Below, one piece after another: positions 1,286-51,869 of a stretch of DNA of 64,000 nt. The position numbers were made by a program, and so were the translations under genes. The DNA is taken from NCBI GenBank assembly GCA_049516875.1, contig JBEKSS010000002.1, forward strand, positions 64,001-128,000, read 5' to 3'. This DNA is from Candidatus Bathyarchaeia archaeon (GTDB lineage Archaea; Thermoproteota; Bathyarchaeia; Bathyarchaeales; Bathycorpusculaceae). Every line of letters begins with the position of its first letter. Position 1 is the first letter of the stretch. A model generated the notes under the pieces. It had not been told where the DNA came from. It did not search any database and worked only from the letters and a program-made list of their open reading frames with translations.

Positions 1286-1286
1286 T

Positions 1287-35001: not shown

Positions 35002-35304
35002 GCGCGCTGGCTTGTCCCTAAAATGGTTAAAAATGGTGTTTATTCTTCTTTTGCCTATTGGAGCTTAATTTGGGCTTGTTTGACGGGTAATCTTGACCGC
35101 GTTGAAAGATAACAAATCACGGGGTTCCATCAAAGCCGGATGGAAGCAGAGTTTTCCCATAAGCCGTTGAGGCTACATTTAGCCCGTCTGGAAAGTCAAG
35201 GCACACAGGAGGACTAAAAACACATATATGCCTCAAAATTGCCCCTAAACCCGAAAACAGGAATATTGACCATTTTACACCAATTTCGGGACAAGGCAGC
35301 GCGC
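35002..35304. mobile_element. MITE-like 303-bp element with 44-bp imperfect terminal inverted repeats
   Basis: 35002-35045 versus reverse complement of 35261-35304: 36/44 identical; no transposase inside. Confidence 0.65.
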
Positions 35305-35393
35305 TTCGACTTACGCGTCGGAATAGCCCAAGGACACAATCAAGGGATGGGTGCCATCGATCGTTCGACCATCCCAAATCAAACTATGAGGAA

Positions 35394-36773: not shown

Positions 36774-37124
36774 ATTCAGACAAAAAATAGATTCTAATAG
36801 TTTAGCTGGCGCGCCAAGTTCCGAAGCCAGTAGATTGGCTGCAATCATTATTCGATATTCATAACCGTTTTAACATTGGCGTGCGCTCGTTATTGACAAG
36901 TCTAGCTGCTTATATCATTTACGAATGGTGAATAAAGTGTGCGCTGTATGGATCAAGGTTGACGTAGCCTACTATGGATTAGCACTCACATTTGTGGGAA
37001 TCTTTATTAATGTTAAGAAGTCTGGAATAGTCTGGCAACTTGGAGAACCGTTCAGAGTGAACATCATGAAAAACAGGCTTAATACTAAGCTTGACAGGCA
37101 ATCAGTGTGGAAGGGTGTGAATGA

Positions 37125-38024
37125 TTGAGGATTCTAGTTACTGGTGCAGCTGGTTTCATTGGCAAACACTTGGTACGGAGGTTAATGGTCGACAGGCATG
37201 AAGTAATCGCATTTGACAGAAGGAGCTGTAGCTTAGGTACCCAGTCCGTTCAAGGAGATGTGGCCTCATTTGACTTCAGCAATATTCTAGAGGATGTTGA
37301 TGTAGTGTTTCACCTTGCCAGTCTTCTAGGCACTGCTGAGCTATTTCACAAAATCATTGAAGCAGAAAGGGTAAACGTTATTGGAACACTGAATTTGCTT
37401 GAAGCCATGCGAAAAAAAGATGTTGACACTATTGTATTTACTTCAAAACCGAATTTCTGGAAGGACAACGTGTACACAATTACAAAGGAAACGTGTGAAC
37501 GTTATCTGACGATGTACAGAAATGTCTACGGGTTCAACGCGGTCTTAGCAAGACCATTCAACGTTTACGGACCAGAAGAGTATCTAAGCGAATACAGAAA
37601 GGCAATACCTTACTTCGTCACAGCCGCCTTGAAAAATGAGACTATCGAAATTTTCGGCAATGGCGAACAAACTATGGATGCTATTTATGTTGATGATGCG
37701 ATTGAAGCTTTGGTCCGCTGTTCCATAGTACGTCCTAAAGAAGTCGTTGAGATAGGCAATGGCAAACCAGTAAAAGTGAAGTATTTGGCAGAAAAGACAA
37801 TCGACCTTTCGAATAGCAAATCCAAGTTGCTCTATATTCCCATGCGGAGAGGGGAGGCCGACGCCAAGGATGTCCATTCTAACGGCAATATTGAGCGATT
37901 AATTGGTTTCCTCCCCAAGATAAGGTTAGAGGATGGTCTCAAGAGAACCATAGACTGGTATTCAAAGCACCTCCAAGAATTCGACAATATTTACAAGTTC
38001 AAGGAAGAAGACTTTCAAACATGA
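37125..38024 (+). CDS. NAD-dependent epimerase/dehydratase
   Basis: VTGAAGFIG, YTITK, RPFNVYGP. Confidence 0.9.
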   Translation: MRILVTGAAGFIGKHLVRRLMVDRHEVIAFDRRSCSLGTQSVQGDVASFDFSNILEDVDVVFHLASLLGTAELFHKIIEAERVNVIGTLNLLEAMRKKDVDTIVFTSKPNFWKDNVYTITKETCERYLTMYRNVYGFNAVLARPFNVYGPEEYLSEYRKAIPYFVTAALKNETIEIFGNGEQTMDAIYVDDAIEALVRCSIVRPKEVVEIGNGKPVKVKYLAEKTIDLSNSKSKLLYIPMRRGEADAKDVHSNGNIERLIGFLPKIRLEDGLKRTIDWYSKHLQEFDNIYKFKEEDFQT

Positions 38025-38088
38025 AAGACACCCGCTTTCTTGAGCGCTTGTAATGCAACGCACTTTTCCTAGTTCGATCCGTCTTTTC

Positions 38089-39006
38089 CTAGATTAGGAA
38101 AACCCTTTCCATTGCACTGGTTTTCCACAATTGCAGGCGTTCGAGAACGACATGAACATAGGTGTAGGGTAATAATCGGAAATCGTCTGCAGTCCTGAAT
38201 CTTTTGAGGAATAGGTTAGCGAAGGTCAAAGGGGGAAAAACCGCTTTTGCTAGGCTTGAGGGGAAAAGTATCCGCCACAGCATAAATTTCCTTTCTCCAT
38301 GCTTCTTGAAGAGTAAGACTCTCTTCGCGATATTTGGGGCTGATTTGATGAGCATTGCCGGCGTTATAGTAACTCGGGGATGGTAAACGACCATATTTGT
38401 GTTGAAACCTATTTTGCCGTGTTCCATGACTCTCAAACCGAGGTCTCTGTCCGCGAGAGGACCCATCCTTTCGTCGAAACCTCCAACAGCTAAGACCACG
38501 TTCTTTGTGAAGGCCTCGTTGCCAGTCATGAATTGTCCTCCGGATCTGTTTTCCATGACGTGGTCCGAGAAGGTTGGCTCATAATCCTCGGACACGTACG
38601 TGATTTTTCCTTCCACCCCGATGCAGTCTTTGTGTTCCAAATATCTGAGACCTTCTTCTATCCAGTTCGGGGATACGGTGCAGTCGGCGTCAGTGAAGAA
38701 AATGTATTTTCCTTTCGCATATTCTAGGCCCTTGTTTCTGCTTTTGGCGATTTTGAGCCATTCTTTGTTTCTAATGTATCTTATTCGTTTGTCGTTGAAT
38801 TTCATGATTATGTTTGCGGTGTTGTCACTGCTCATGTCGTCGACCAAGACGATCTCAAAGTTCTGGAATGTCTGATTCAATAGTGAACCAAGGCAGTTTC
38901 CAATGTACTTTTCGGTATTTCTTGCGCACATTACGACACTGACATGTGGGTTCATCAGCGAAGCTCCAATAGCCGCCGGACGTGCCGTCAAACTTGGTTT
39001 ACTCAA
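38089..39006 (-). CDS. GT2 glycosyltransferase
   Basis: VSVVMCARN, VDDMSSD, FTDAD, GGFDE. Confidence 0.9.
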   Translation of the reverse strand: MSKPSLTARPAAIGASLMNPHVSVVMCARNTEKYIGNCLGSLLNQTFQNFEIVLVDDMSSDNTANIIMKFNDKRIRYIRNKEWLKIAKSRNKGLEYAKGKYIFFTDADCTVSPNWIEEGLRYLEHKDCIGVEGKITYVSEDYEPTFSDHVMENRSGGQFMTGNEAFTKNVVLAVGGFDERMGPLADRDLGLRVMEHGKIGFNTNMVVYHPRVTITPAMLIKSAPNIAKRVLLFKKHGERKFMLWRILFPSSLAKAVFPPLTFANLFLKRFRTADDFRLLPYTYVHVVLERLQLWKTSAMERVFLI

Positions 39007-39187
39007 TGGTTTCTATTCATCTATATATATCTATATACACGTCCAACCTCTTGGACTTGCAGATGCATCCTTTAATCGGACATTCAAATGACTTTGCGCG
39101 GTCAGCTCCGTTCTTCTCCTCTTCCGTCTCCGGTTGACAGAATCAAAGCCCTACGGACCTTTTTGAAGATTTCGGTAAGATCTAGTC

Positions 39188-39392
39188 TTATTCCATGACG
39201 TTGCATGCAGCCGATCCATCCATCTGTATGGCTTGAGCGTCGATCCAAACGGCACTAATGGCAACGATTTCGCGATTATAAATGAAGCTCAACAGATCAA
39301 GTTGATGTGAACCAAGATCGTCCAATGGGTCAACAGCGCCATGGATTGGCGACCAAGCCTGTATGTCGGTTATCATAACAAGCTGAGCTATT
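39188..39392 (-). pseudogene. Internal fragment of a Gfo/Idh/MocA oxidoreductase
   Basis: DPLDDLGSHQLDLLSFI motif without a Rossmann N-terminus; begins at GATCGATC 39393. Confidence 0.6.
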
Positions 39393-39556
39393 GATCGATC
39401 CTCGGAGACTTGCAGGAAAGGTGAAGCAATCGATCGCTCTTCTCCTAATCCTTGGACACTTTTGAATTAGCCTATGTATAAGCACTACAGGAACAGTATG
39501 TGGCTGAACACTTCCTCTCGTACTACGCATCATGCATTGTTGGTGGAGGGACGAAG

Positions 39557-40942
39557 TCAGAAGAAATCGGAGATCCGCGCGCACGCCGTTGAAGCCAGTG
39601 AAACAAACTCCGCGAAAAGCTCTGTGAGGTCACCTCTCTTTAGCGCGCGCAAGCGCTGTCGCATGTTTGATTGGCGCAGAATCTTCTCGAGTCTTTTCCT
39701 GTCGAAATATGGTGTGGCAACTTCGCATATGCCTCCTTCGTCCATATTTTTATACCAACCTTTTCGAATGATTTGTTCGTACAAGGGACTTGTTGGGTAA
39801 CCAACGTATATGTTTATCCACACCGTTGCATCGAAGGCATCAACTAGTTTAGCTCGCAACTCCAATGTTCTTTTCATCTCTTCTATGGTTTCTCCCGGTA
39901 TCCCAATCATCAAAGAAGCTCCCGTGTGGATACCAACTTGTTTGCAAAGCTTGAAAGCCTCCATAGATTGGCTAATTGTTATGCCCTTGTCTATCAGAGC
40001 AAGAACTCTGTTACACGCACTTTCAACGCCAAACCAGACACGTTCGCAACCAGCCTTCTTCATTGCAGTCAATAATTCATAGTCCACCAGATCGACTCTT
40101 GCCTCGCAAATCCAGGACAGATCCATTCTTTCTTCTCTCATCAAACGACAAAGATTCAGCACTCTTTTCCTGTTTACTGTGAAATTGTCCTCTCTAAAGT
40201 AGACTCCCCTTGTTTTGTAATTATCAATCAGAAAGCTCATATCTGAAACTATCCTCTCAGGACTAAAAGACCTGTAGGTTCTTCCCCAAACTGCTTGATT
40301 GCTGCAGAACCTGCAGTGAAATGGGCATCCTCTGGAGGTGTTAACGGCGTCGAGCGGATAAATGTCCACAAGATGATCTTTCCTCGGATATTTTTCCATA
40401 GGAAGAAGGTGCCATGCCGGAGGGGGTATGTCGTCCATGTTCCTTATCAAAGCTCGTGGAGGATTACAAGTGATACCAGCGTTTTTCTTGTAGCAGATTC
40501 CTTGGACTTCATTCAGGTTTCCATTCTTCTCAAGACACTTGATCAGTTCGACTATAGAATGCTCTCCTTCTCCTTGCACAACTATGTCCGCCTTCGTCCC
40601 AGACAAGGTTTCATAAGGTCTTAATGTCGGGTGAGGACCGCCCATTATTATTGGAACTTGGAAGACTTCCTTCAAGACGCTTGCCATTTTCTTGGCTTCA
40701 GAATAGACCGCAGATGTGCAACCTATGCCAATAACCTCAGGAGAGAATCTTCCTACCTTACCGACCAGCTCTTCTAGTTGAATCCGAAAAAGATTGTTGT
40801 CAAAGATCTTGACTTCATGACCAGCGTTCTCCAAAGCAGATGCAACAAATCCCAAGCCCAGCGGTGGCATTGCCCGGTCCTGCGCGCCAAGGGCAATCCT
40901 TCTTGATGGGGGTGGGGGCGGACTAATGAGAAGGGCTTTCAC
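39557..40942 (-). CDS. Cobalamin-dependent (class B) radical SAM protein
   Basis: PPLGL, GGPHPT, TSRGCPFHCRFC, FGVES, GIPGET. Confidence 0.92.
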   Translation of the reverse strand: MKALLISPPPPPSRRIALGAQDRAMPPLGLGFVASALENAGHEVKIFDNNLFRIQLEELVGKVGRFSPEVIGIGCTSAVYSEAKKMASVLKEVFQVPIIMGGPHPTLRPYETLSGTKADIVVQGEGEHSIVELIKCLEKNGNLNEVQGICYKKNAGITCNPPRALIRNMDDIPPPAWHLLPMEKYPRKDHLVDIYPLDAVNTSRGCPFHCRFCSNQAVWGRTYRSFSPERIVSDMSFLIDNYKTRGVYFREDNFTVNRKRVLNLCRLMREERMDLSWICEARVDLVDYELLTAMKKAGCERVWFGVESACNRVLALIDKGITISQSMEAFKLCKQVGIHTGASLMIGIPGETIEEMKRTLELRAKLVDAFDATVWINIYVGYPTSPLYEQIIRKGWYKNMDEGGICEVATPYFDRKRLEKILRQSNMRQRLRALKRGDLTELFAEFVSLASTACARISDFF

Positions 40943-41433
40943 CTGTTTCAGTCACCAGATTTTTCCCGTTTATCTCTTCATCCTTCATATTTTACACTTG
41001 CAAGCATTTATGCATTATCTGCGGCGCGGGCGCCTCGCATTTTGGCGGGTTTGGGAACCTCTAACAAAGCGCAGATTGTAGGGGCGAGATCAATGATATG
41101 AGCATGTGCTTGTGCGCGCGCTAGCAACTAAACATCTAGGGAAATACTTGACACATATAATCGGCAAAGATTCTCGAACAGAAGCATCAACCCAAACGCA
41201 CAAAAGGGAGATCTTGTCCGGGAAACGTCCACAAAAGGCCAGCAATACCCCTTCTCGACTGTCTTGAGTGACAATAGCTTTCTTGACAGGTCTTTCTCCT
41301 TTTTGTTCGCTACCTTCCTCTTTTTCTGCAGTTACCAATAACTCATTCTTTGCTTCTAGAAACTCTGCAAACCTAGTACACGCTTTGTAATCGATCGATC
41401 GCTCTTTTTTCATACCGAAAAACACGTATGCTC

Positions 41434-42471
41434 TTAGATCGGAGAGGAAAATGATTTGACAACTTGATGCGTGTCGAGTGACTTTTCAATGCTCTCTAGG
41501 AGATTGATTGCCTTTCTCCCATCTTCAGGCCGCACAGGCGGAGGAACATCTTTCTTCATGCTTCTCAAATATTCGCTAATCAGATAGTAATGCCCAGCAA
41601 AATAGCCAAGCTTACCGCCAGCGCTTCTTAGTGCGATAGGTCGCGACGGCAAGTGATGCAGAATCCTTTTGACATCAGAATAGAGAGAGGCTCTCGCCAT
41701 TTCTTCAAGAGAAGGATTGCTATCTCCATCTATGAGATACCTTTTTCCGCCTGAAGTTTCGGCTTCGAAGATTGCTTCAGCATGCTTAGCAATAAATGAC
41801 ACTTCTATCAGGCCATAGGCTTGATTAGAGCTTTTCAAAAGCACGGCAAAATTATTGTAGACTTGAGTATTCACTTTGCTTCCAACTGCGTAGACTTCAG
41901 ATATGCCTTTCAAGAAGTGCAACTGTAAATATGCCATATGAACGCCTGCCTCCCAAAGAACACCCTTTTCTTCAGGCGATAAATTCCACTTGGGTGCTGT
42001 TACTAGGGTGGGGTTCTCCTTGAGCGAAGTTCGACAATAGACGATGTGACGACCTCCAGAATCAATGATGGACCTGGCTTGTCGAATAGCTGGGAAGAAA
42101 ATCTGGTTGTGGCAAACACAAAGCTTGACTCCCTGCCTTTTTGTTACAAGTATCATTCTGTCACATTCCTCGACGCTGAGTGCCATAGGTTTTTCAACCA
42201 ATATATTGTGCCCAGACTTAGCCGCATCAACCACTATCGACGCATGGGTTGATGTAGGTGTACAAATATCAACCAGATCAAGGTCCTTAATCTCCAGAAG
42301 ATCCACATATTCCGAGAAGAATCTGTTCACTCCAAATCTCCCTGCAGCGGCTTTGGCCTTGGTCAGATTTATGTCCGCAACGGCAACTACTTTTGCATCT
42401 TTTATATTCTGGTAAACCCGCAAGTGATTCTGCGCTACTCCACCACAACCTATAAGACCTACATTCATCAA
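41434..42471 (-). CDS. Gfo/Idh/MocA oxidoreductase
   Basis: GLIGCG, ICTPTSTH, VEKPMA. Confidence 0.9.
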   Translation of the reverse strand: MMNVGLIGCGGVAQNHLRVYQNIKDAKVVAVADINLTKAKAAAGRFGVNRFFSEYVDLLEIKDLDLVDICTPTSTHASIVVDAAKSGHNILVEKPMALSVEECDRMILVTKRQGVKLCVCHNQIFFPAIRQARSIIDSGGRHIVYCRTSLKENPTLVTAPKWNLSPEEKGVLWEAGVHMAYLQLHFLKGISEVYAVGSKVNTQVYNNFAVLLKSSNQAYGLIEVSFIAKHAEAIFEAETSGGKRYLIDGDSNPSLEEMARASLYSDVKRILHHLPSRPIALRSAGGKLGYFAGHYYLISEYLRSMKKDVPPPVRPEDGRKAINLLESIEKSLDTHQVVKSFSSPI

Positions 42472-42653
42472 GACACCACTTTCATAATTTCCACCATAGA
42501 CTCGCGCGAGCTTATGCAGACCTATTATGCGGCGAATTACGTATAAGAGAGTTTGGGAATGGATCGATCATATTATCTGCGACGTAGAACGGTGACGTAG
42601 GCGATCGATCGTTCGGTTTTGTTTCGATAAGGGAAGCGCGCGCTTTTGTTTCG

Positions 42654-43095
42654 TTAGGGTCTAAGGGCGGTCATTAGTTTTTCGATGATGTCTAGTACGA
42701 AGTTCGTCAAGCATCGAAGTGGGCCGAGGAGGGTCATGGTTTCTCGTATGGTGTCGACGTCGCTTCGGGTGATCGCTCCTGTGAGGATGATAGCGATGAG
42801 GAAGAGGAAGAGGAACACGATTGCGCCAGCGACGAGTGCGATCAAGTTGCTGAAGGCTAGTTGGGTGATGAGAGCATAGGTGATTGCCGAGGCTGTGCGA
42901 CCTGATCGATCGATCGCGCGATAGGAGTATTTTGGCGGAGGACTCCCAGTCTACGGTTACGTCGTATTGTCTTTTTAGCCAGCGTAGTGCGACTATGAGG
43001 CTAGGGATGCCGGCTGTAAGCGTGGTGACAATTAAGCCGAGGATACCGAATCTGGAGATGAAAACGATGCTTAAGGGGAAGCCGATGCCGAACGT
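42654..43095 (-). pseudogene. 3' fragment of a flippase paralog, frameshifted by a GATC/CG tract
   Basis: FGILGLIVTTLTAGIPSL...SSAKILLS / TASAITY...GAITRSDVDTIR aligns to the C-terminus of 52175-53803. Confidence 0.85.
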
Positions 43096-43200
43096 GATCG
43101 ATCGATGTTACGTGCAACCAAGACAAAAAAGACGGCGTTGAAGGGGACGAATGGCAAGCGCCTCTCCCGTCAGGCTTTCCGTTTGCAAATCCGTCGATCG

Positions 43201-43430
43201 ATCCTGCTCCTCTAGCTCACTCCTACCAAGTACATGAACCTCGAACTGTTGAACGCGACCGCGTCTTCAAACCTTGAAAACATAGAGTCCTCTCTAGCAA
43301 TGAAACATCTAGCAAAGGCATCTACCTACCGCCAAAACGCCTCAAAGACTACGAGTCTGGCCTGGTTTTCATCCCACGGAAGGCAGGCGACCCCCTACCC
43401 GGGCCCGAAGAAACCGACTTAGAAAAACTG
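43201..43430 (+). pseudogene. Internal fragment of a paralog of 49066-49890
   Basis: ILLL*LTPTKY..ELL / KGIYLPPKRLKD...PLPGPEE versus VLLYIKPERY..TLL..DATYLPPKYFTD...SLPTPEQ; contains a stop and a frameshift. Confidence 0.75.
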
Positions 43431-43973
43431 CGATCGATCGATCTTTTACAGAAGTCTATTAAGTCCAAGAAACGCTTTCTTAAATCTTCCATAAAACTCG
43501 AAAAACACGCACTATGAAATGATCAACCAATTCTCATCAAGAACGGCAGTACTGGTAGCAAGCGCGTAGAACCAGGTTGTATGCTTGGGCTTTCCGTTAC
43601 CGCAGTGCATGCTATGACCTCCTAGAACTACCGCGCTTATCGGGAATAGAAAGCTTTGACCAGTCTTTTGACTTCTTCGATTTTCTCTATATCGGCAATC
43701 GCGCGTTCTATTTACGGGTGTGGGGGAAGAGAACCCCGGAGATCGATCGATTCAGAAGTCTGCAATGGTTTGGCAACTTAGAACGCGCAACCCAGAGCTG
43801 CGAGCGAGAGTTGAGCGAGCATTGCTATCAAACGCAGTTACCGTATGCTTTTTGTGATATGTAGTCCATTGGACAAATATCTGCCTTGCGTTTTGGTCAG
43901 GGACACGCGTCTCACCATATTCTTGTCTAGTGTGAGGATGGCAAGTCAATGAACGACTTATCATAGATGTCTG

Positions 43974-44675
43974 TTAGAAGACGATTTTGCGACAGTGAAA
44001 GGCTTCAGCGTACTTGCTTGGTGAATTGGATTCTACGCCTCGAATTCTCAGTATCGATCTAAAGGTCTCTTCAGTGAACCAGTGTTTTTTCTTCTGGGTC
44101 TTGAAGATGCTAGAGATGAGGCTTATTTTCATTTGAACGAGTGGCTCGTCGAGGTGAACGTAGAAGTTTGGGATTCCCAGGTCTCCGTCGTATTTTGGGA
44201 CTTCATACTCGAGGATGAAATGGTCCCTAAACGTGTTCCAAGTCAGATCGGAGATCAAGCGATGATCTTGATGAGCATCGTTGCTGTAGTGAGTTAATAC
44301 CATATCGGGAGAGAATTCCTTCTTTAGCTTCTCAAAGTAGTCCTTGATGTGCGCGCCAACAAATGGGAAATAGGATTCTCTGAACTGTTGGATGTCTATC
44401 TTCTTCAACTTGACGTCTTTCAGAAAAGCGTTTGCGCCTTCCCATGCCTCTTTGCCTCGTCTTGCGTTCCCACTGAGTACAGACCAGTAGAACTGAACGT
44501 CGCCCCGCTCTACTAGTCTCAGGATGGTGCCTCCACACCCGATTTCTATGTCGTCTGGATGCGAGCCCAAACATAAGACGTTTAATCTTGGAGATTTCTC
44601 AGGGAATTTGAGTTTAAGCATTCCAGATTGCCCCACGGTAATTTCTAACTGTTCGTATTTTTCCACACCTCCCAA
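43974..44675 (-). CDS. PIG-L/LmbE family deacetylase
   Basis: SHPDDIEIGCGG, HQDH, YEVPKYDGD. Confidence 0.9.
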   Translation of the reverse strand: MGGVEKYEQLEITVGQSGMLKLKFPEKSPRLNVLCLGSHPDDIEIGCGGTILRLVERGDVQFYWSVLSGNARRGKEAWEGANAFLKDVKLKKIDIQQFRESYFPFVGAHIKDYFEKLKKEFSPDMVLTHYSNDAHQDHRLISDLTWNTFRDHFILEYEVPKYDGDLGIPNFYVHLDEPLVQMKISLISSIFKTQKKKHWFTEETFRSILRIRGVESNSPSKYAEAFHCRKIVF

Positions 44676-45430
44676 GGCGCTTTACGTCCGGAGGCCAGTT
44701 CATCCAGCCGCTGCTTATCCTTGTATGTATCTAGGTTTGCCCAGAATCCATCATACTCGTATGCAACTAGTTCACTTCTCTTGATTAATCGTTGAAAAGG
44801 CTCGTCTACCAGATCTTCCCCCTCATTAATGTAATCAAATATCTCGTTCTTGAAAACGAAGAATCCTCCGTTAATTATCATGCCGGATTGACTTGCGTGG
44901 CGAATACTTTTGACACGACCGTCAGTGCCTGTTGAAACAACATGGAACGTGCCGAAGGTTTTCACAGCAAGAAAACAGCCTATCTTTCTGCGTTTGATAA
45001 AGAAATCAATCAACTTAGGAAGGTACAAATCAGTGACAGCGTCACTGTAATTGGCCAAAAACGCTTCTTCCCCTTCTAAGTATTTCTGAACTGCCTTCAA
45101 TCTCTGTCCAACATTTGAGTGCAAGCCTGTCTCAACGAAGGTGATTCTCCAATCTTCAATGTCACTCTTGAGCAGTTGCCGTTCTTTGCCTCCGTTCGAG
45201 AGAATGAAATCGTTCGAGAGGCATTCGTCGTAGTTCAAGAAGAATCTCTTGATCTGTTCCCCTTTGTAGCCAAGGCAGAGGACGAAGTCCTTATGTCCAA
45301 AGTGGGCATAATATTTCATGAGATGCCATAAGACGGGTTTTTCTCCGATGGTGACCATGGGTTTCGGAACGTTCTCAGTGCTGGGATAGAGTCTCAATCC
45401 CAAGCCGCCGCAAACCAAGACAACTTTCAT
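44645..45430 (-). CDS. rfbF: Glucose-1-phosphate cytidylyltransferase
   Basis: GGLGLRL..PKPM, LGYKG, INGGFF, GFWANLDT, APWEVW. Confidence 0.88.
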   Translation of the reverse strand: MKVVLVCGGLGLRLYPSTENVPKPMVTIGEKPVLWHLMKYYAHFGHKDFVLCLGYKGEQIKRFFLNYDECLSNDFILSNGGKERQLLKSDIEDWRITFVETGLHSNVGQRLKAVQKYLEGEEAFLANYSDAVTDLYLPKLIDFFIKRRKIGCFLAVKTFGTFHVVSTGTDGRVKSIRHASQSGMIINGGFFVFKNEIFDYINEGEDLVDEPFQRLIKRSELVAYEYDGFWANLDTYKDKQRLDELASGRKAPWEVWKNTNS

Positions 45431-45449
45431 TCATTTCCCTCTCTTTGTT

Positions 45450-46727
45450 CTAGGTAACATTGCAAGTTTCGCTGCAGTTCGCATCGTAAATCTTCACCTC
45501 TGGTATCGGTACAATGAATCTGCCACCCCACTGACCTATATATGACATCTGTTTCATTATTTCATCTTTCAGGTTCCAAGGTAGAATCAGCACGTAATCA
45601 GGCTTGGTTTCTTTTATCCTATCAGGATGGAAGATAGGGATGTGAGTTCCTGGCAGAAACTTTCCTTGCTTGTAATGGTTTCTATCAACAGTGTAGTCGA
45701 GGAAGTCCGATCGGACGCCACAGTAATTGAGAAGAGTATTACCCTTGCCTGGAGCACCGTATCCGACGATTGATTTCTTTTTTCGCTTGAGACTGATTAA
45801 CGAGCCTAAGAGATCTCTCTTTGTTTCTTTGACCTTTTCGGTGAACGAGAAGTATTTTTCAAGGTCCGTGAAACCCTCCGTGTTTTCTCTAGCTCTCAAC
45901 TCATCCACATGGCGAGTTACACGCTTGGATCTGTCCTCGCTGTGTCGAGCATAGATCCTTAGAGAGCCACCATGAGTAGGCAGTTCGTCGACGTCAAAAA
46001 TAGTTAAGCCGTGTGCGGCAAACACTCTTTCAGCGGTGAGGAAGGAGAAATATGAGAAATGCTCATGATAGATTGTGTCAAATTGGTTTCCATCCATTAA
46101 TTTCATCAGATGTGGGAACTCCATGGTGATGGTGCCCTTCGGTTTGAGTAGGATCTTCATGCTTTTCACGAATCCGTTGAGGTCGGGTACCTGAGCCAAT
46201 ACATTGTTTCCAATTAATAGATTGGCATGTTTTTTCTTCGCCGCTAGTTCATTAGCAGTCTTCAAGCCGAAGAATTTGACAGTAGTTGGTATTCCGTTTC
46301 TGATAGCTGCCGCCGCAACATTAGCCGCTGGCTCTACACCCAGGACTGGTATGCCTTTTCGAGCGAAGTATTGAAGAAGATAGCCATCGTTGCTGCCTAT
46401 TTCCACTACTTGACTTTTTCTATCTAACCCAAGTCTGTCAATAATCATTTCAGCATAGTTCTTGGCATGGTTCAGCCATGTTTCAGAGTATGACGAGAAG
46501 TATGCATATTCGGTGAAGATTCTTTCAGGAGACACGTACTCTTCCAGTTGAACCAAGAAACAGTTCTTGCAAACATGGGCATGCAGCGGATAGAAGGGCT
46601 CCATCTGGTTCAATTGATCTGGGCCCAAATAGCTTTCACAGAGAGGTTGCATTCCCAGGTCGACAAACGTATGTTGCAGTTCTGATCCACAGAATCTGCA
46701 TCGAGGCAACTCAGTTTTCTTGCTCAT
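45450..46727 (-). CDS. NDP-sugar C-methyltransferase
   Basis: CRFC, DLGMQP, EIGSNDG, DTIYHEH, HGGSLR, YGAPGKGNT. Confidence 0.9.
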   Translation of the reverse strand: MSKKTELPRCRFCGSELQHTFVDLGMQPLCESYLGPDQLNQMEPFYPLHAHVCKNCFLVQLEEYVSPERIFTEYAYFSSYSETWLNHAKNYAEMIIDRLGLDRKSQVVEIGSNDGYLLQYFARKGIPVLGVEPAANVAAAAIRNGIPTTVKFFGLKTANELAAKKKHANLLIGNNVLAQVPDLNGFVKSMKILLKPKGTITMEFPHLMKLMDGNQFDTIYHEHFSYFSFLTAERVFAAHGLTIFDVDELPTHGGSLRIYARHSEDRSKRVTRHVDELRARENTEGFTDLEKYFSFTEKVKETKRDLLGSLISLKRKKKSIVGYGAPGKGNTLLNYCGVRSDFLDYTVDRNHYKQGKFLPGTHIPIFHPDRIKETKPDYVLILPWNLKDEIMKQMSYIGQWGGRFIVPIPEVKIYDANCSETCNVT

Positions 46728-46958
46728 TCATTTTCCTCAAGGTGTCAATCGATTAATTCCTTGAGATTGATCGACGTTACTGAAGCTAAATAGTTTTTGC
46801 CACATTGCTTAATCGCTCGAATTCAGACACCAAATCAGCGCGCACTGCTTCCAGCGCGCGCGCAAATCAGACTAGAGGAATTCTATAGAAGGGTCATCCA
46901 GTCTGATTTATAAAGACGATACCGCAAAGATCCTTATACAAAGTAGCAGGGTGGAACT

Positions 46959-48788
46959 GTGAAGAAAATTATTCGAGGTCTTGCCATAGCGATTATTTTT
47001 TGTGCTATGCTGACTACAGCATATGGATCGAATGTGTATGGTTTTTCGCAAAAAATCAGCCTATCTAATTCTTCAACGTCTTCGTTCCCACAAAACGGGA
47101 TGGTGAGCATAGCTTTTGACGATAGCTTACAAAGCCAGTACGACTATGCTTTGCCTCTGCTAAAAGCGAAAGGAATGCACGCGACATTCTATGTTATCTC
47201 GGATCGTGTTGGTAAAAGTGGTTACTTGACTGTTTCAGAACTGCAGGATTTGCAAAGCAACGGAAATGAAATAGGTAGCCACAGCAAAACCCATCCAGGT
47301 TTCACGGGAATTTCAGACGCACAGATTCAACAAGAATGTTCGGTTTCAAAGCAAGTCTTACAATCGTATGGCTTGACAATCAACAATTTTGCCTATCCAT
47401 ATGGTGACTGCAACACACACACCGACTCCATAGTCAGCCAATACTACAGGTCGGCAAGATCAGCCTATGATTACCCTTACATCATGCAACTTCCGACAAC
47501 ACAGTTCAGATTGTTGGCAACAGCTGGAAACATACAGACCTATATTACAGAGCTTCAAGGATACGTTAACAATGTGATAGCATCTAAAGGATGGGCAATA
47601 ATAGTGTTCCACGATGTCGTTCCGAGTGCTGGTGACTGGCAGACAAGCACGCAAGTTTTTAGCCAATTCTTGGACTACTTGGAAGCCAATGGTGTGGAAG
47701 TATTGACTGTGAACCAGGCCCTAGACATGGGTTCGCGTGATGTCGACATAACTAGTGTAGTGCCCTCCGCTGTACAAGCCGTCCCCGGAACAATCATCGA
47801 CATAAACGTCACTGCGAGAAATGAAGGGGCAATGACGGAGACTTTCAACATTACCACGTATTATGATAACAACGAGATTGGCACTCAAACTGTCACCGAC
47901 TTGGCTTCCGGAGCAAACAGAACCATCACCTTTGGCTGGAATACTAATGCTGTGCCATTTGGTGACTATACGATCAAGGCAATAGCAAGCACGGTTCCCG
48001 AAGAGGTAGACACAGCGGACAACACATACGTCGGCGGCACAGTAACAATATTCGGACCACCAATAGCCAGCTTCACTTACTACCCATCAAACCCTTACAT
48101 CAATCAACCCGTTCTGTTTAATGCATCATCATCCACACCGGATGGCGGAACCATCACAAATTGCCTGTGGGACTTCGGTGATGGCAATATTACATCAGCG
48201 GCCAGCACCATAACGTCTCACGTATATACCTTGGGCGGAACTTACAACGTTGCGCTAACAGTGACCAACACTGAAGGCCTAAATGGGTCGGCATCCGAAC
48301 TGGTGACAGCAGAAGTCATGGTAGCGGACATCTTTTCTGTAGCATCCAACTCAACCGTTTCTGATCTGTCATTCAATTCGACAAGCTTGGAGCTAGGCTT
48401 CACCGTGGCTGGCCCCTCAGGCACGACAGGACTCACAAGAGTGACAATCGCAAAAACTTTCGTGGCAAATGTCACAAATCTCAAAGTGTTCTTGGACGAA
48501 AAACCGTGGCAGTATTCAGTCACCGAAACAGGGGATTCATGGGTGGTATCCTTTACATACACGCACAGCACTCATTACATAATGCTAGCTTTGAATCCTT
48601 CTCGCTTACGTGGCGATGTGAACAATGATGGACAGGTCAACATGCTGGACGTGAGCATGGTAGTCGCAGCTTTTGGTTCGAAGCCCACAGATACAAGATG
48701 GAATTCTGCAGCAGACTTGGACAACAATGGAATAATAAACATCAGGGACATAGCCATAGTAGTTAGAGAATTCGGAAACACAGTCTAG
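46959..48788 (+). CDS. Secreted polysaccharide deacetylase with CARDB, PKD and dockerin domains
   Basis: FDD, HSKTH, FAYPYG; WDFGDG; GDVNNDGQVNMLD...DLDNNGIINIRD. Confidence 0.87.
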   Translation: MKKIIRGLAIAIIFCAMLTTAYGSNVYGFSQKISLSNSSTSSFPQNGMVSIAFDDSLQSQYDYALPLLKAKGMHATFYVISDRVGKSGYLTVSELQDLQSNGNEIGSHSKTHPGFTGISDAQIQQECSVSKQVLQSYGLTINNFAYPYGDCNTHTDSIVSQYYRSARSAYDYPYIMQLPTTQFRLLATAGNIQTYITELQGYVNNVIASKGWAIIVFHDVVPSAGDWQTSTQVFSQFLDYLEANGVEVLTVNQALDMGSRDVDITSVVPSAVQAVPGTIIDINVTARNEGAMTETFNITTYYDNNEIGTQTVTDLASGANRTITFGWNTNAVPFGDYTIKAIASTVPEEVDTADNTYVGGTVTIFGPPIASFTYYPSNPYINQPVLFNASSSTPDGGTITNCLWDFGDGNITSAASTITSHVYTLGGTYNVALTVTNTEGLNGSASELVTAEVMVADIFSVASNSTVSDLSFNSTSLELGFTVAGPSGTTGLTRVTIAKTFVANVTNLKVFLDEKPWQYSVTETGDSWVVSFTYTHSTHYIMLALNPSRLRGDVNNDGQVNMLDVSMVVAAFGSKPTDTRWNSAADLDNNGIINIRDIAIVVREFGNTV

Positions 48789-48850
48789 AATCCTACCTTG
48801 GAATCTTATTCCGAGAAAATTCTGAACGTGCGCGCTAAACGAGCGCGCGC

Positions 48851-48955
48851 CCTGAAAAACCCAGGCAACCTAGCCCTCGCCCTGAAAGCCTTAACCATGA
48901 CAGTCGCAATGATAGCACTATACTTTCAAGACCTGAGAATAATCTTCACCGACGC
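48851..48955 (+). pseudogene. Possible N-terminal fragment of an exosortase/archaeosortase-like membrane protein
   Basis: LALKALTMTVAMIALYFQDLRIIFTDA resembles, from recall, such N-termini; ends at CGCGCGC 48953. Confidence 0.4.
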
Positions 48956-49065
48956 GCGCCACGTTTGGAAAACCAGGATGACCGGCAAAAGTCGAGAACA
49001 CAAGCGTCTGAGCGTGTGGAAGCAGATAATAACCCGTAGCTCAAAGTAGAAAAGAGGAGTCCAAA

Positions 49066-49890
49066 GTGCGCGTAGGAATAAACCTAGTAAGCTCAGCAAG
49101 TGTGACAATGCTTCTGCTGGGCACGATATCCCTAGTAGCTTCAATAGGCTATAATTCATCCATACTTGCTTTCATAGGCCTAGGCCTAGTCTTCTGGGGA
49201 GCAGTTCTCCTCTACATCAAACCCGAACGATACGCGAAAAAAACCCTCTTGGAAGCCGCATTGTCACCTTCTCTCACAACATTAAACCAGATGATCCTGG
49301 AACTCGGCTACAAAGGAGACGCCACATACCTCCCCCCAAAATACTTCACAGATCCAGAGACCACCCGGATGTGCGTGTCAAAATACAAGTATACAAGCCT
49401 TCCAACGCCAGAACAAATCCAACCATACGAGGACCAACCCTTAGCCCAAACCGCGCAAGGCCTGCTGCTCACACCGCCCGGGTTTGAGCTGTCAAAACTG
49501 CTGGAAAAGTCACTCGGAAAGAGCTTCATCAAAACAGACCTCGAAAGCCTCCAGCAGAGCCTCCCAAAAATCTTCATCGAAGACTTGGAAATCGCCGAAA
49601 ACCTGGAACTGCAAGCAGACACTTTCAACAAAAAAGAAGGCGTAACTGCATATGTCACTCAGGTGAGGAACACCACGGTCCACGCAACAATAACCAAACC
49701 GATCATTAGAAACAAACTCGAAGAGGCTGAACAAACCTCGCAGATAACCAGCTCAATCTTCTTCCCGCTCTGCAGCGCCATCGCCATAGCCATAACCAAG
49801 GCAACAGGCAAACCAGTAAGAATAACAGACACTATGAGCTCCGAGGACGGCAATGTTATAGAGGCCAGCTTCGAAATCGTGGAGGAATAG
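49066..49890 (+). CDS. Conserved archaeal membrane protein
   Basis: Two N-terminal TMs, YLPPK, TPPG, PLCSAIA. Confidence 0.75.
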   Translation: MRVGINLVSSASVTMLLLGTISLVASIGYNSSILAFIGLGLVFWGAVLLYIKPERYAKKTLLEAALSPSLTTLNQMILELGYKGDATYLPPKYFTDPETTRMCVSKYKYTSLPTPEQIQPYEDQPLAQTAQGLLLTPPGFELSKLLEKSLGKSFIKTDLESLQQSLPKIFIEDLEIAENLELQADTFNKKEGVTAYVTQVRNTTVHATITKPIIRNKLEEAEQTSQITSSIFFPLCSAIAIAITKATGKPVRITDTMSSEDGNVIEASFEIVEE

Positions 49891-49894
49891 CGCA

Positions 49895-50107
49895 ATGGAT
49901 TTTCCCATGTCATTCTGGGACATGAGCCTGTGGCTAGCCATCACAGCCATAATCCTACTCGTAACATCAGAACTCATCTCATCGTACTACGGAAAAACAA
50001 ACCCCCCCATCAACGAAAACAGACTACGAAATGTAGCACTAGCCGTCTCAACACTCTTCCTCGCAACAGTGGCTGTAAGAATAGTCACCATCATAATCAG
50101 CCCGTAA
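49895..50107 (+). CDS. Small two-TM protein
   Basis: SLWLAITAIILLVTSELIS...RLRNVAL; collinear with neighbours. Confidence 0.7.
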   Translation: MDFPMSFWDMSLWLAITAIILLVTSELISSYYGKTNPPINENRLRNVALAVSTLFLATVAVRIVTIIISP

Positions 50108-50329
50108 CGCGGAAAGAAACACGAAGACCAACGCGCTTGCAACCCACATTCTATACAGCGACAAACATGAAGGCACGTCTGGATTCCATGCAGACACAGA
50201 ATTCTGCGGCCGCACGTGCCTCCGGTGGAAACGCTGTTTCTTACAACAACGAAACAACGTTAACATAGAAGCATAAACCCTAAAACCTACAATAAACCTA
50301 ACAAGCCAACAGCCAAGGAGCCAACACAT

Positions 50330-50989
50330 TTGCCCAAAAAACCCGCCGAAGACGAACTGGACCAACAGATAATCCGCACCGTTGAAACGGAAAAACCAGA
50401 AACCATCCAACATCTAATCGACCAAGTACAGGCACTGTCATCAAAACCCAAACAGGAAATATTGGACCGAATACTGCAACTACAGCAAACAGAAAGAATC
50501 CACCTCAAACCAGCCCAAACAGCAACCCCGGAAAAGCTCACCAGCTACCTGCGCTCAAACCAAGCCCTCTGGTACTGGATCACCATGGCACTCACGATAG
50601 CCACAGCCATAGTCGTGTTCACTGTCCCCGAAGACGCCTTCCCACTAGTGTACCTAAGATACGTCCTAGGCACAGCGTTCGTCCTGTGGCTGCCAGGCTA
50701 CGCCTTCACAAAAGCCCTCTTCCCACAAAACCTTCCATTCGCCAAAGCCCTAGCACGCTCATCCGACACGTCTGAAAAAGAGTTGGACGCCATTGAACGC
50801 ATAGCCCTGAGCGTGGGCATGAGCATTGCACTCGTCCCCATCGTCGGCTTGCTCCTAAACTACACACCGTGGGGCATTCGTTTAACACCCATAGTCCTAA
50901 GCCTGCTCGCGTTGACCACAATCTTCGCCACAGCCGGAATCATAAGGGAACATCAAACCAGAGCCCCCCAAAAACGCAAGCCCAAATAG
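50330..50989 (+). CDS. DUF1616-like protein (N-terminal membrane part)
   Basis: RYVLG..FVLWLPGY..ALFP, ERIALSVGMSIA, LLNYTPWGI. Confidence 0.8.
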   Translation: MPKKPAEDELDQQIIRTVETEKPETIQHLIDQVQALSSKPKQEILDRILQLQQTERIHLKPAQTATPEKLTSYLRSNQALWYWITMALTIATAIVVFTVPEDAFPLVYLRYVLGTAFVLWLPGYAFTKALFPQNLPFAKALARSSDTSEKELDAIERIALSVGMSIALVPIVGLLLNYTPWGIRLTPIVLSLLALTTIFATAGIIREHQTRAPQKRKPK

Positions 50990-51169
50990 GCGCGCGCTAC
51001 TGAAACCAAAACAGTCAAGGTCGAGCAAACTCCGTCAAAACTCGACAACACGAAACCATCGACAAGAAATAAAAAAAGGACAGATGCCATCCCTTTTGAC
51101 AGCATAATCCCAAAACAGTCAGGGTCGACTGGTTTCCGATCGCACGGGTATCGCTGGTGCCCTGTAGAA

Positions 51170-51628
51170 CTATTGTGTTGCTGTGATGGTTATGTCGAAG
51201 CTGAAGGTTGTGATGCCGGTGATGCTTGATGAAACCGTAAGGCTCAGCACGGCCTGGACAGATGCGCCCACTGCAAGCACGTAACCAGCCCTGTTCCAAG
51301 TCAGCGTGAAGTAGCTTGAAGCCGAACTTGGGTTCCAGTTGCCCGCACTTATGCTTAACGTGACTGGCACGTTGCCCTCGTTCTTCAGGTAAATCGTCGC
51401 CGTTGACGTCCCGCCGGCATTCAATGTTCCCCAACTGACGCTCGATAGCGCGGATGTACATCCGCTGTCTGAGTACACGCCCAGCTGCACCGATGGCGGC
51501 GTGACGACTGCGATGTTGCCCGTGTTCGAGACTGTGCGAGTCGCAACTAATGAGCCCACCGCGCTAGTGACTAGGGCCATAACCGCTAATACTAGGACCG
51601 TTCCCATGGTTGCTTTTTGCATAGCCAT
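51170..51628 (-). CDS. Small secreted Ser/Thr-rich beta-sandwich protein
   Basis: Signal peptide, VSNTGNI, SWGTL, YLKNEGN, FSFDITI. Confidence 0.75.
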   Translation of the reverse strand: MAMQKATMGTVLVLAVMALVTSAVGSLVATRTVSNTGNIAVVTPPSVQLGVYSDSGCTSALSSVSWGTLNAGGTSTATIYLKNEGNVPVTLSISAGNWNPSSASSYFTLTWNRAGYVLAVGASVQAVLSLTVSSSITGITTFSFDITITATQ

Positions 51629-51869
51629 AATCTTTCACTAAGACAAACAGGGTAATCTGAAGTCTTAATAAACATTATTGTCCACACAAACAACACAAAT
51701 ACACATCACAAAACATACACACAACCAAAAACATGCAAAAACAACCCCAAAAACCACAATAATGTACAACACACCACAAAACACATCCCAACTACTTATC
51801 CCAACTTCATAAAAGCTTTAACTAAGCATAACACGAGTCAACCGTCCGACCTCCAAAAAAAGGCCGTAC

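Follow-up and report, generated by a model that had tools for sequence, protein, structure and literature searches.

Replacement-type flexible islands for cell-surface glycans ("glycotype" islands) are known from marine bacteria and from Haloquadratum, and they are described as being exchanged whole, via homologous recombination in their arms. On a much smaller scale, filler DNA or P nucleotides at end-joining junctions and the footprints of transposons consist of short extra letters, often palindromic, that have no template at the site, while IS200/IS605 elements are not known to duplicate their target or to leave a footprint. A short palindrome of another kind is GCGATCGC, the motif known as HIP1. 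HIP1 is the highly iterated palindrome of cyanobacteria (PMC6604393, PMC6105098). In mycobacteria, Ku/LigD end-joining is reported to make templated insertions where restriction enzymes leave 5' overhangs (PMC4176160).

The stretch of Bathyarchaeia DNA analyzed here (the window, 64,000 nucleotides in all) carries an island of the flexible, replacement type. Between its conserved arms, Pfam identifies more than 30 genes for glycosyltransferases, sugar-modifying enzymes and flippases, and the gene content, order and orientation vary among contigs that are 84-98% identical in shared blocks. To that extent the locus resembles the glycotype islands, but the units reshuffled here are individual cassettes, and short palindromic tracts stand at the joints. 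In the island core, gene cassettes form a mosaic, in an order and orientation that vary from one close relative to the next, as is seen from the block order in the contigs L046, L047, L049, L051, L052 and L059.

A 4.85-kb block (39009..43861) is absent from three of these related contigs. L046, L047 and L049 join window position ~39017 to ~43906-43913 with 75-136 nt between, and reading of the junctions sets the block edges at about 39009 and 43861; in an abundant relative in sequencing run X7, a stretch of 146 letters connects 38955 with 43911. The block contains a B12/radical-SAM gene (39557-40942, minus strand) and a GFO/IDH/MocA oxidoreductase gene (41434-42471, minus strand), both recognized by Pfam, as well as the cluster of gene scraps and tracts at 42562-43751. 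Its edges carry no tract, and thus not every junction is marked. The absence of the whole block from the three contigs had gone unremarked in the first-pass annotation of this DNA.

Few parts of microbial genomes change as fast as variable surface-glycan islands, and cassette exchange in them is mostly inferred, not seen. Joints that bear a readable mark would allow past break-and-join events to be mapped base by base in an uncultured archaeal group, and would make it possible to look for the repair or restriction activity behind the tracts. A literature search of limited reach turned up no account of natural (GATC)n tracts at junctions, and none of the matches listed for highly iterated palindromes concerned archaeal tracts.

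The tracts at issue are maximal period-4 runs of the GATC type. The window has 28 matches to GATCGATC where 1.15 are expected (the maximum among 100 shuffles was 4), and the whole 2.43-Mb genome has 46. Although the window is only 2.6% of the genome, it holds 24 of the genome's 68 tracts of at least 8 nt and 17 of the 26 that reach at least 10 nt, and the excess is limited to one 38-kb island. Tract size ranges from 8 to 19 nt, every phase of the repeat is represented, and copy number is low, at 2-4.75 units. Nineteen of the 22 tracts with a GATCGATC core lie outside ORFs of at least 150 aa in a region that is 77% coding (P 5e-10); two of the three exceptions are within 40 nt of an ORF end, and the third (15062-15074) has a homology breakpoint 14 nt away. 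No flanking sequence is common to the tracts, either within the window or in comparison with the loci of L049, G384 and G027, and a search between tracts found no terminal repeats or MITE-like segments. Because the flanks show no likeness on either strand, the segments between tracts have no terminal inverted repeats, and the lack of common flanks, together with variable size and the use of every phase, argues against a defined site or element end.

A second class of self-complementary run, (GC)n, occupies comparable places, at gene-fragment and cassette boundaries, including the window block ends 25044, 42491, 46847 and 48849. Three or four of the 22 GATC-type tracts are fused directly to a (GC)n run, and the composite CGCG(CG)-(ATCG)n recurs at 16867-16883, at 42904-42920 and in the G384 locus L038. 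The two classes differ in that (GC)n has a two-letter unit and a genome-wide excess (GCGCGCGC is observed 447 times against 30.7 expected), whereas the GATC unit has four letters and is concentrated in one island; a matching element end was found for (GC)n, and none for GATC.

Comparison with HIP1 yields a CGATCG core common to both, each being a lineage-specific palindrome of unsettled origin. HIP1, however, is a fixed octamer dispersed across whole genomes, genes included, whereas the tracts here are tandem, variable in length, intergenic and restricted to one island, and GCGATCGC occurs 0 times in the window. A donor lineage with genome-wide GATCGATC was considered from the 147 and 137 matches in the Bathyarchaeia genomes G055 and G109. 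The idea was dropped because these are HIP-like GGATCGATCC motifs inside genes (10 of 11 sites), a phenomenon separate from the tracts.

The cluster at 42562-43751 is where tracts and broken genes are most closely interleaved. An earlier count had given eight tracts in this 1.2 kb; the tract-dense cluster of gene scraps is confirmed, but counting of period-4 (GATC)n runs gives seven, equivalent to nine overlapping 8-mer matches against a background expectation of 0.022 (Poisson P ~5e-16). A (GATC)2 tract (42562..42569) and a CGATCGATCG tract (42602..42611) are followed by a (GC)4 tract (42636..42643), some 8 nt from which, at ~42651, the homology of a flippase scrap to genes of G003 and G013 fades. 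The scrap proper (42654..43095, minus strand) is interrupted by a composite (GATC)3 + GCGCG tract at 42904..42922, the period-4 part of which is 42904-42916, and its homology begins directly past the tract at 43096..43106, as the first-pass annotation had proposed for a flippase paralog. An 87-nt spacer (43107..43193) with no second copy in the genome and no protein match leads to the tract at 43194..43203. This is the left end of a plus-strand scrap (43201..43424) of the gene family named for window position 49066, and a (GATC)3-type tract at 43431..43443 is its right end. Beyond lies a 262-nt piece (43444..43705) that ends in CGCGCG (43700-43705) and has no genome, window-protein or Rfam match, then a 34-bp fragment of an IS200/IS605-type left end (43706..43739, plus strand), which is truncated by the tract at 43741..43751. 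Three different remnants (flippase, 49066-family and IS end) terminate exactly at tracts.

The flippase scrap was characterized with the resident flippase (52175-53803), which carries PF01943. On the minus strand, tblastn aligns residues 389-445 in one frame (26 of 57 identical) and residues 445-523 in a second (24 of 79), so that amino acid identity to the resident protein is 46% and 30% in the two parts, with a joint E of 3e-17; homology to Wzx-type flippases of the Polysacc_synt/MOP superfamily is thereby clear. The DNA is 74% identical to the intact flippase gene of G003 and 73% identical to that of G013. Only the C-terminal ~135 codons plus the stop are present (residues ~389-523 of what would be an ORF of ~450-550 codons), the first ~388 codons are missing, and the genome has no upstream part anywhere; the scrap is a pseudogene fragment. 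The G003 and G013 genes run uninterrupted across the site of tract 42904-42916. Where they have 3 nt the window has 19 (42904-42922), a 16-nt insertion that alters the frame and has the same 3 nt at both of its ends. This agrees with the frameshifting insertion that had been read from the window alone, as 22 nt where ~6 were predicted.

The 49066 family is an uncharacterized gene present in 46 of 101 genomes of the family, that of the archaeon itself included. A profile built from 20 members matches 43287-43424 (profile 108-153, 23.5 bits) and, in another plus frame, 43201-43311 (profile 78-114, 8.3 bits). These hits in two frames indicate that the scrap spans tract to tract with one stop and one frameshift, which bears out the earlier description of a paralog running from tract 43194 to tract 43430. 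The scrap, likewise a pseudogene fragment, covers profile positions 78-153 of 293 only, where an intact frame would span ~274-293 positions. Its best relative is the G432 homologue (55% over 49 aa), and the resident gene is 37% identical over 30 aa.

That the two scraps lie in opposite orientations, with their ends at tracts, had been noticed at first pass and holds, as does the A/C-rich coding-strand skew attributed to them. A+C is 0.586 in the flippase scrap and 0.621 in the 49066-family scrap, against 0.575 and 0.617 in the resident arm genes and 0.46-0.54 in neighboring core genes. The further proposal, that pieces of another right-arm allele were cut and re-joined here, is supported in part: the scraps are diverged versions of arm genes and not the resident copies, but there is no evidence that both derive from one and the same right-arm allele. 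Pieces 42472-42660, 43097-43205, 43430-43760 and 43741-43973 have no other copy in the genome and no match among the window proteins. Pfam gave no hit on the cluster's small ORFs, the only hint being a weak GFO match at 39188-39376 (E 0.005, below cut-off), and neither structured RNAs (Rfam) nor tRNAs were found. The stretch 42.5-43.9 kb is non-functional debris, made up of a second flippase tail, an internal piece of a second 49066-family gene, an IS-end stub and three pieces without traced origin. The cluster is dead DNA, a record of past rearrangements and not a working system.

Tracts stand at other joints as well. A second scrapyard at 16564-17208 has the pattern of the main cluster: two pieces are copied from 10948-11065 (86% identical) and 10281-10413 (75%) with their order swapped, and the joint between them is a composite CGCG + (ATCG)3 tract (16867-16883). 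At the breakpoint corresponding to window 48822, the GATC-type tract of L047 has as its counterpart in the window different letters and then GCGCGC. L059 marks the left end of the GFO cassette with (GC)4G, and the GATC-type tract of the window is 41 nt away. Among 15 distinct ends of homology blocks (blocks at least 83% identical, collapsed by hand), six lie no more than 15 nt from a GATC- or GC-type tract, where the expected share is 0.045 overall (P 3e-5) and ~0.17 if only intergenic DNA is considered (P 0.03). The contig L049 has a dense cluster of its own, with 13 tracts of at least 8 nt, seven of them within 1.3 kb and 10 of the 13 outside ORFs of at least 100 aa. Tracts in G384 and G027 are likewise intergenic (8 of 9). 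L046 has no tract of at least 9 nt, though its cassettes are equally shuffled.

The junctions might be products of library construction, if chimeric Hi-C reads had entered the assembly of a variable region with poor coverage. GATCGATC is the known product of ligation in Hi-C libraries cut at GATC, the literature matches listed for it are primers, Hi-C or unrelated work (several of the titles are Hi-C or HiChIP papers), and the cluster pieces are in mixed orientation. The first-pass annotation had asked for read support at the junctions, and contigs of runs X5, X6 and X7, none of which is flagged as a possible source, support them. The X6 contig (42456-44052) bridges all seven tracts with 0 differences, that of X5 (42456-43286) bridges five with 0 differences, and that of X7 (42899-43591) bridges four with 1 difference, and depth over the cluster equals that of the flanks. 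Since these contigs carry the junctions, the tracts are not an assembly or Hi-C artefact. In addition, Hi-C ligation does not make runs of 3-5 units or GC/GATC composites, the tracts keep away from coding DNA, and the other assemblies (L049, G384, G027) repeat the pattern. An artefactual origin is thus rejected as wildly improbable.

The tracts might be taken for active, orientation-free crossover sites, at which cassettes are deleted, inverted or swapped by microhomology-mediated or enzyme-driven exchange, with scraps as by-products. A (GATC)n run is identical on both strands, so any two tracts could pair in any direction and any register. The opposite orientations of the scraps, the steps in tract length (which fit out-of-register pairing), the recurring composite tract and the frequent position of cassette limits at or near tracts (28551, 11 nt; 15048, 14 nt; 23825, 17 nt; 41442, 41 nt) are all what such sites might produce. 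This origin is nevertheless rather unlikely. A two-site crossover does not yield the 16-nt tract that interrupts continuous flippase sequence, one breakpoint has different fillers in different lineages, the edges of the 4.85-kb block are tract-free, and the shuffled cassettes of L046 come without any tract of at least 9 nt. Pfam on 45 window ORFs, a scan that was not exhaustive, gave no recombinase or transposase. The same set contains no integrase, and with no shared flanks the island does not have the makings of an integron-like cassette array. A cut-and-paste element that duplicates GATC-like target sites, adding one unit and sometimes a few element-end letters with each round of insertion and loss, would account for the same 3 letters at both ends of the 16-nt insertion, and the genome does have a multi-copy element of ~300 bp that is bounded on either side by GCGCGC, one copy of which occupies 35002-35305 of the window. 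The tracts fused to (GC)n point the same way. The likelihood of this origin is nonetheless small. Only the (GC)n runs have a living element that matches them; none with tract-like ends was found, flanks and inter-tract segments show neither likeness nor terminal inverted repeats, and the one mobile-element piece among the debris, which belongs to the footprint-free IS200/IS605 type, is itself cut by a tract. The footprints of a resident element should, moreover, be genome-wide, and the excess here is in one 38-kb island.

Tetranucleotide repeats are also familiar as drivers of phase variation at loci of the surface-glycan type in Haemophilus and Neisseria, and the tracts lie between genes of a surface-glycan island, several of them 8-190 nt upstream of gene starts. 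That they are functional repeats, serving the glycan genes in phase variation, protein binding or regulation, is however quite improbable: distances to gene starts and gene ends obey no rule, copy numbers are low, the contigs of four runs show no difference in length (contigs hide rare variants), the densest cluster is among dead gene pieces, and the first ~388 codons are missing from the fragment that holds the only in-frame tract. More speculative is a joining process of an undescribed kind that assembles or reshuffles Bathyarchaeia glycan islands and writes or uses self-complementary tandem tracts. Such tracts, being the same on both strands and in any register, would be portable, orientation-free joints, but the existence of this process is doubtful. 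It is likewise a long shot that the unit is lineage-dependent, with (GATC)n in this genome, L049, G384 and G027, (GC)n genome-wide in this genome, and (CTAG)n in G149 and its kin. If lineages do write different palindromic units, the tracts could tag the origin of transferred DNA.

The reading that we favor, with somewhat better than even confidence, is that the tracts are scars, left by break-and-rejoin events in a surface-glycan island of mosaic build. What is established is that the scraps exist and stop at tracts, that one of them carries the insertion, that relatives lack the block and that the junctions are real; to this the reading adds the supposition that the tracts arise during joining. 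They would then be short, self-complementary filler left where broken DNA ends were rejoined, and neither genes nor mobile-element ends nor fixed recombination sites. A single tract could link unrelated pieces in either orientation or, as in the flippase scrap, form a short insertion by itself where the sequence is otherwise unbroken. Two routes seem most likely. Staggered ends may be filled in and re-ligated, each cycle adding one 4-nt unit and recreating the site, or letters may be copied from a nearby tract with priming by 2-3 nt of microhomology; slippage could follow either. The tracts share with filler DNA, P nucleotides and excision footprints the presence of short extra, often palindromic letters at a joint, but P nucleotides mirror whichever end they extend, whereas the filler here is always one repeat unit, whatever flanks it.

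Mycobacterial Ku/LigD end-joining provides a close precedent, in that a 4-nt overhang duplicated by fill-in would turn GATC into GATCGATC. The end-joining genes are present in this genome as a complete operon of Ku (139 bits), a LigD primase-polymerase and a ligase with a 3'-phosphoesterase domain. Differences are also evident: Ku was not found in five other tract-bearing genomes (G384, G048, G027, G102 and G260), of which the G384 and G048 assemblies are 100% complete, and tracts reach 19 nt and extend in phase past whole units. The letters next to the tracts continue the repeat, with C before in 12 of 22 tracts and G after in 16 of 22, against 19% in each case for single GATC sites, which plain duplication of GATC does not predict.

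A seed GATC or CGATCG at the position now occupied by a tract had been suggested at first pass as the thing to look for in intact donors, and it was found in 0 of 7 sites compared, three of which have 3 of the 4 letters. The start of the flippase scrap and its internal tract were each set against G003 and G013, and either side of the junction at 16867-16883 against the paralogue of that side. L047 was compared with the window at 48822, L049 with L046 and L047 in a spacer, and tract 52088-52097 with a 97-98% identical relative, whose contigs have 18 extra letters opposite the tract. Simple filling-in at pre-existing GATC sites is therefore not supported, and no single overhang copy is seen in these comparators, but as sequences 73-98% identical they are not true donors or unbroken parents and the comparison is not decisive. 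Break-and-rejoin scars give no reason why the filler is (GATC)n in this island and (GC)n in other parts of the genome.

Restriction might supply the breaks. CGATCG is only mildly under-represented (observed/expected 0.61, sixth lowest of 64 palindromic hexamers), and the window and the genome have single CGATCG sites at equal frequency. A search for a GATC-type methylase of the D12 or C5 classes found none, and there are seven N6_N4 methylase matches, five of them above cut-off. With weak avoidance of CGATCG and no D12/C5 methylase, a restriction-scar model is neither confirmed nor excluded.

The IS-end fragment adds a mobile element to the debris, and it is absent from the description in the first-pass annotation. 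The 34 bp at 43706-43739 are 94-97% identical to multi-copy sequence in G001, G002 and G004, and the fragment occurs once in its own genome. The IS-end sequence continues into a hairpin in L012 and L014; the part read in L012 comprises the end and the hairpin, and in L014 the end runs on into a Y1 transposase gene (PF01797, E 7e-39). In the window, the succession of left end, sub-terminal hairpin and Y1 transposase gene is broken off, and the 34-bp piece is, judging from its matches, the remnant of an IS200/IS605-type left end that was cut inside the hairpin region by the tract at 43741-43751.

Between 42562 and 43751, the window (G000:C2:64001-128000, of a 2.43-Mb genome in 20 contigs) holds a scrapyard of broken gene pieces lying between tracts, a tract being a maximal period-4 run of (GATC)n. 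The cluster contains seven tracts, not the eight counted in the first-pass annotation, where background predicts 0.022. On the minus strand at 42654-43095 are the last ~135 codons and stop of a flippase gene, found by tblastn with the resident flippase (52175-53803) in two frames (26/57 and 24/79 residues identical). Its DNA is 74% identical to the intact flippase gene of one compared genome (G003) and 73% to that of another (G013), and three-way alignment with these genes places the onset of homology directly after the tract at 43096-43106, as had been proposed; homology then continues to the stop, fading ~8 nt short of GCGCGCGC at 42636-42643. The same alignment confirms the suggested frameshifting tract insertion: the scrap has a single interruption, of 19 nt (42904-42922) against 3 nt in the homologues, in which (GATC)3 passes directly into GCGCG. 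This 16-nt net insertion, which changes the frame, has the same three letters on both sides.

A second piece, on the plus strand at 43201-43424, is internal to a gene of an uncharacterised family named after the resident right-arm gene at 49066 and present in 46 of 101 genomes of the taxonomic family, this one counted. A profile built on 20 members gives matches of 23.5 and 8.3 bits in two neighbouring plus-strand frames, together spanning profile positions 78-153 of 293. The piece was said to run from tract to tract, and it does, starting barely within the 3' edge of tract 43194-43203 and stopping shortly ahead of tract 43431-43443. Its closest relative is a homologue in another genome, G432 (55% over 49 aa); identity to the resident gene is just 37% over 30 aa. 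Both scraps keep the A/C-rich coding-strand skew noted for them at the outset, with A+C of 0.586 and 0.621 against 0.575 and 0.617 in the arm genes and 0.46-0.54 in the core genes neighbouring the cluster. A third piece, 34 bp at 43706-43739, is single-copy in this genome and 94-97% identical to a multi-copy sequence, often at contig ends, of G001, G002 and G004. Since its counterparts in two loci (L012 and L014) extend into a GC-rich hairpin, followed in L014 by a Y1 transposase gene (PF01797, E 7e-39), it is the left end of an IS200/IS605-type element, cut here within the hairpin region two letters ahead of tract 43741-43751. The pieces at 42570-42601, 43107-43193 and 43444-43705 have no recognisable relative in the genome itself, the window proteins or Rfam. 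The scraps are ordinary pseudogene debris.

The junctions had been put forward subject to read support, and contigs of single runs bear them out. Eight public sequencing runs contain the 1.7-kb stretch, four of them possible sources. Among runs not flagged as sources, X6 gives a contig over 42456-44052 with 0 differences that bridges all seven tracts, X5 one over 42456-43286 with 0 differences (five tracts), and X7 one over 42899-43591 with 1 difference (four tracts); a possible source, X1, covers 42456-49423 with 0 differences. Contig depths across the cluster equal those of the flanks. GATCGATC is also the ligation junction of GATC-based Hi-C libraries, but an origin of the tracts as a Hi-C or assembly artefact is ruled out by the per-run contigs, by the 3-5-unit and composite tracts, and by the avoidance of coding DNA.

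By Pfam scans of its ORFs, nearly all of 1-56 kb is a flexible surface-glycan island, ordinary in content, with GT2 and GT4 glycosyltransferases, epimerases/dehydratases, methyltransferases, a B12/radical-SAM enzyme, GFO-type oxidoreductases, a PIG-L deacetylase, a Wzx-type flippase and DUF1616 genes. The arm genes at 49066-55117 have a strikingly A+C-rich coding strand (0.58-0.68), and the left arm (1-8000) a mirror-image G+T excess on the plus strand, with GC skew up to +0.38; DUF1616 is apparently split between 4636-5232 (profile 154-273) and 50330-50989 (profile 5-123). Of 46 occurrences of GATCGATC in the entire genome, 28 fall in the window, where 1.15 would be expected. The window holds 24 of the genome's 68 tracts of at least 8 nt and 17 of its 26 of at least 10 nt, and all 24 are confined to 14067-52097. 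They are 8-19 nt long and start and end in every phase, and comparison of their flanking sequence found no common flanks. Tracts with a GATCGATC core lie outside ORFs of at least 150 aa in 19 of 22 cases in a region that is 77% coding (P 5e-10). A second scrapyard lies at 16564-17208, where copies of 10948-11065 (16748-16866, 86% identical) and 10281-10413 (16883-17014, 75% identical) stand in swapped order, joined by CGCG + (ATCG)3; its gap also contains two further GATC tracts and two GC runs.

Searching metagenome contigs with the neighbouring PIG-L protein yielded 80 loci. Three relatives' contigs (L046, L047 and L049; 84-91% identity in shared blocks) join ~39017 straight to ~43906-43913 across 75-136 nt, and a much more abundant relative (runs X6 and X7) joins 38955 to 43911 with 146 letters between. 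All four skip the same stretch, so the scrapyard forms with the radical-SAM and GFO genes a single block of 4.85 kb, placed at about 39009-43861 by reading of the junctions; neither outer edge carries a tract. Beyond this block the island is a mosaic. L046 runs 25054-26276, 28551-29729, 36984-39017, 43906-46847, inverted 15048-14243 and 48849-51314, the last 98% identical, and another relative's contig, L059, carries 41442-42491, the block with the GFO gene, at 90% identity in a different context. A variant of the GFO gene (41449-42213), with some 38 differences over 412 nt, reaches 5-7x strain depth in X1, X5 and X6, being either a cassette carried by another abundant organism or multi-copy. 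(GC)n runs at 46838-46863 and 48830-48850 flank a polysaccharide deacetylase gene with PKD and dockerin domains (46959-48788), a cassette absent or replaced in L046, L049 and the abundant relative of X7 and partly kept in L047.

Many of the homology-block ends coincide with tracts of the GATC or GC kind. The ends at 23825, 28551, 41442 and 48822 lie 17, 11, 41 and 8 nt from a tract, those at 42491 and 46847 lie 12 nt from CGCGCG and 4 nt from GCGCGC, and those at 25044 and 48849 fall within GCGCGC and GCGCGCGC; the end at 15048, 14 nt from a GATC tract, accounts for the one tract deep inside an ORF. Six of 15 distinct ends are within 15 nt of a tract (P 3e-5 unconditioned, 0.03 if only intergenic space is allowed), counting manually collapsed blocks of at least 83% identity, with three co-linear BLAST splits in L049 excluded. 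The association is clear, but only moderately strong, since tracts are intergenic anyway. Comparisons of three individual joints are more telling. At 48822, the same last shared letters lead to a GATC-type tract in L047 and to other letters plus GCGCGC in the window; at 28551, 25 nt of GATC-like units in the window face ~90 nt of different sequence in L046 and L047, where a (GC)n run precedes it; and the L059 joint at the left end of the GFO cassette is (GC)4G. The filler thus varies between lineages at one and the same breakpoint.

We lean towards reading the tracts as scars of break-and-rejoin rather than as sites or element ends, because they end gene fragments, one interrupts continuous sequence, they share no flanks, their length and phase vary, lineages differ at one joint, and they survive almost only in non-coding DNA; such survival is expected, since genes are destroyed by insertions of a length not divisible by three. 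By one route, (i), a staggered cut would leave a 4-nt 5' overhang, and fill-in and blunt ligation would double the overhang and recreate the site, adding one unit per further cut. The genome has a complete operon for Ku, LigD primase-polymerase and ligase-phosphoesterase, and a paper on mycobacterial end-joining describes templated insertions of the fill-in kind at restriction-cut 5' overhangs (PMC4176160). The operon lies at G000:C9:90883-93943, and its ligase carries a fused 3'-phosphoesterase domain; of 14 genomes used as controls, the Ku profile matches Bacillus subtilis alone. Several findings count against route (i). The first-pass annotation had proposed looking for single GATC sites where tracts now stand, and GATC occupies the tract position in none of seven comparators, 73-98% identical stand-ins for the true donors; the best of them, in a 97-98% identical relative at tract 52088-52097, has no GATC, and contigs there show 18 extra letters in six small insertions. 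An in-phase C precedes the core in 12 of 22 tracts and a G follows it in 16 of 22, against 19% each, far too often for route (i); the Ku profile matches none of five other tract-bearing Bathyarchaeia genomes, and CGATCG is only mildly avoided in this genome (0.61). By another route, (ii), an end would prime on an existing tract through 2-3 nt of microhomology and copy a few units of it. Four joints with a usable comparator have 2-3 native letters in phase with the tract, and the composite CGCG(CG)-(ATCG)n, nearly identical at 16867-16883, at 42904-42920 and in locus L038 of genome G384, looks copied. Given the points for scars and those against route (i), break-and-rejoin is therefore kept as the somewhat likelier origin, and either chemistry may have written the tracts.

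Known systems differ from the tracts in several respects. HIP1 is a fixed octamer found genome-wide, also inside genes, whereas GCGATCGC has no copy in the window. Integron attC sites are accompanied by an integrase and conserved flanks; Pfam scans of 45 window ORFs found no integrase, and the tracts share no flanks. Contingency repeats vary in length, but contigs of four runs, which can mask rare variants, show no tract-length variation, and the one tract within a reading frame belongs to a dead gene. A transposon footprint calls for an element to match it, and for GATC tracts no such element was found. The unusual part is the joint signature of tandem, self-complementary, lineage-specific tracts, and among the papers listed for iterated palindromes in archaea and for GATCGATC, none describes such junction tracts in its title or abstract.

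The pattern recurs elsewhere. Over 16.7 kb, L049 has 13 tracts of at least 8 nt, and 10 lie outside ORFs of at least 100 aa; seven are packed in 13250-14538 behind a methyltransferase remnant, and one is composite, (GC)4 fused to five TCGA units. Across 401 Bathyarchaeia genomes CGATCGATCG mostly has 0-2 copies, with 15 each in G000, G384 and G027, and in the loci read from the latter two 8 of 9 tracts lie between genes or at the edge of an ORF, and the surrounding genes vary. In L038 (G384:C29), two CGATCGATCG tracts at 2060-2146, one fused to CGCG, lie just past the 3' end of a 510-aa phage-integrase-family gene and may mark the edge of an integrated element. The reversed control word GCTAGCTAGC is very frequent in other lineages (151 copies in G149, 77 in G116, 73 in G098; 31-151 when G154 and G143 are included), and in three G149 loci (L126-L128) six of seven (CTAG)n tracts, 8-16 nt long, are intergenic; (CTAG)n of at least three units carries a stop codon in all frames of both strands. 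In this genome GCGCGCGC stands at 14.6x expectation genome-wide and the phase-shifted CGCGCGCG at 8.0x, no other doubled 4-nt palindrome being notable. With a GATC unit in the island and a GC unit in the rest of the genome, the island core could have been shaped in another host or on entry from one. Two further genomes, G055 and G109, carry 137-147 GATCGATC copies per 1.2-1.4 Mb, chiefly as GGATCGATCC, and 10 of 11 sites read there (L040-L042) are within genes, a HIP1-like iterated palindrome in an archaeal lineage of 54-60% G+C. At 35002-35305 the window also has a ~300-bp multi-copy element with GCGCGC-led inverted ends and whole or partial copies on at least 8 other contigs (best 90% over 304 nt, C15), where contigs of all four runs break with many loose ends.
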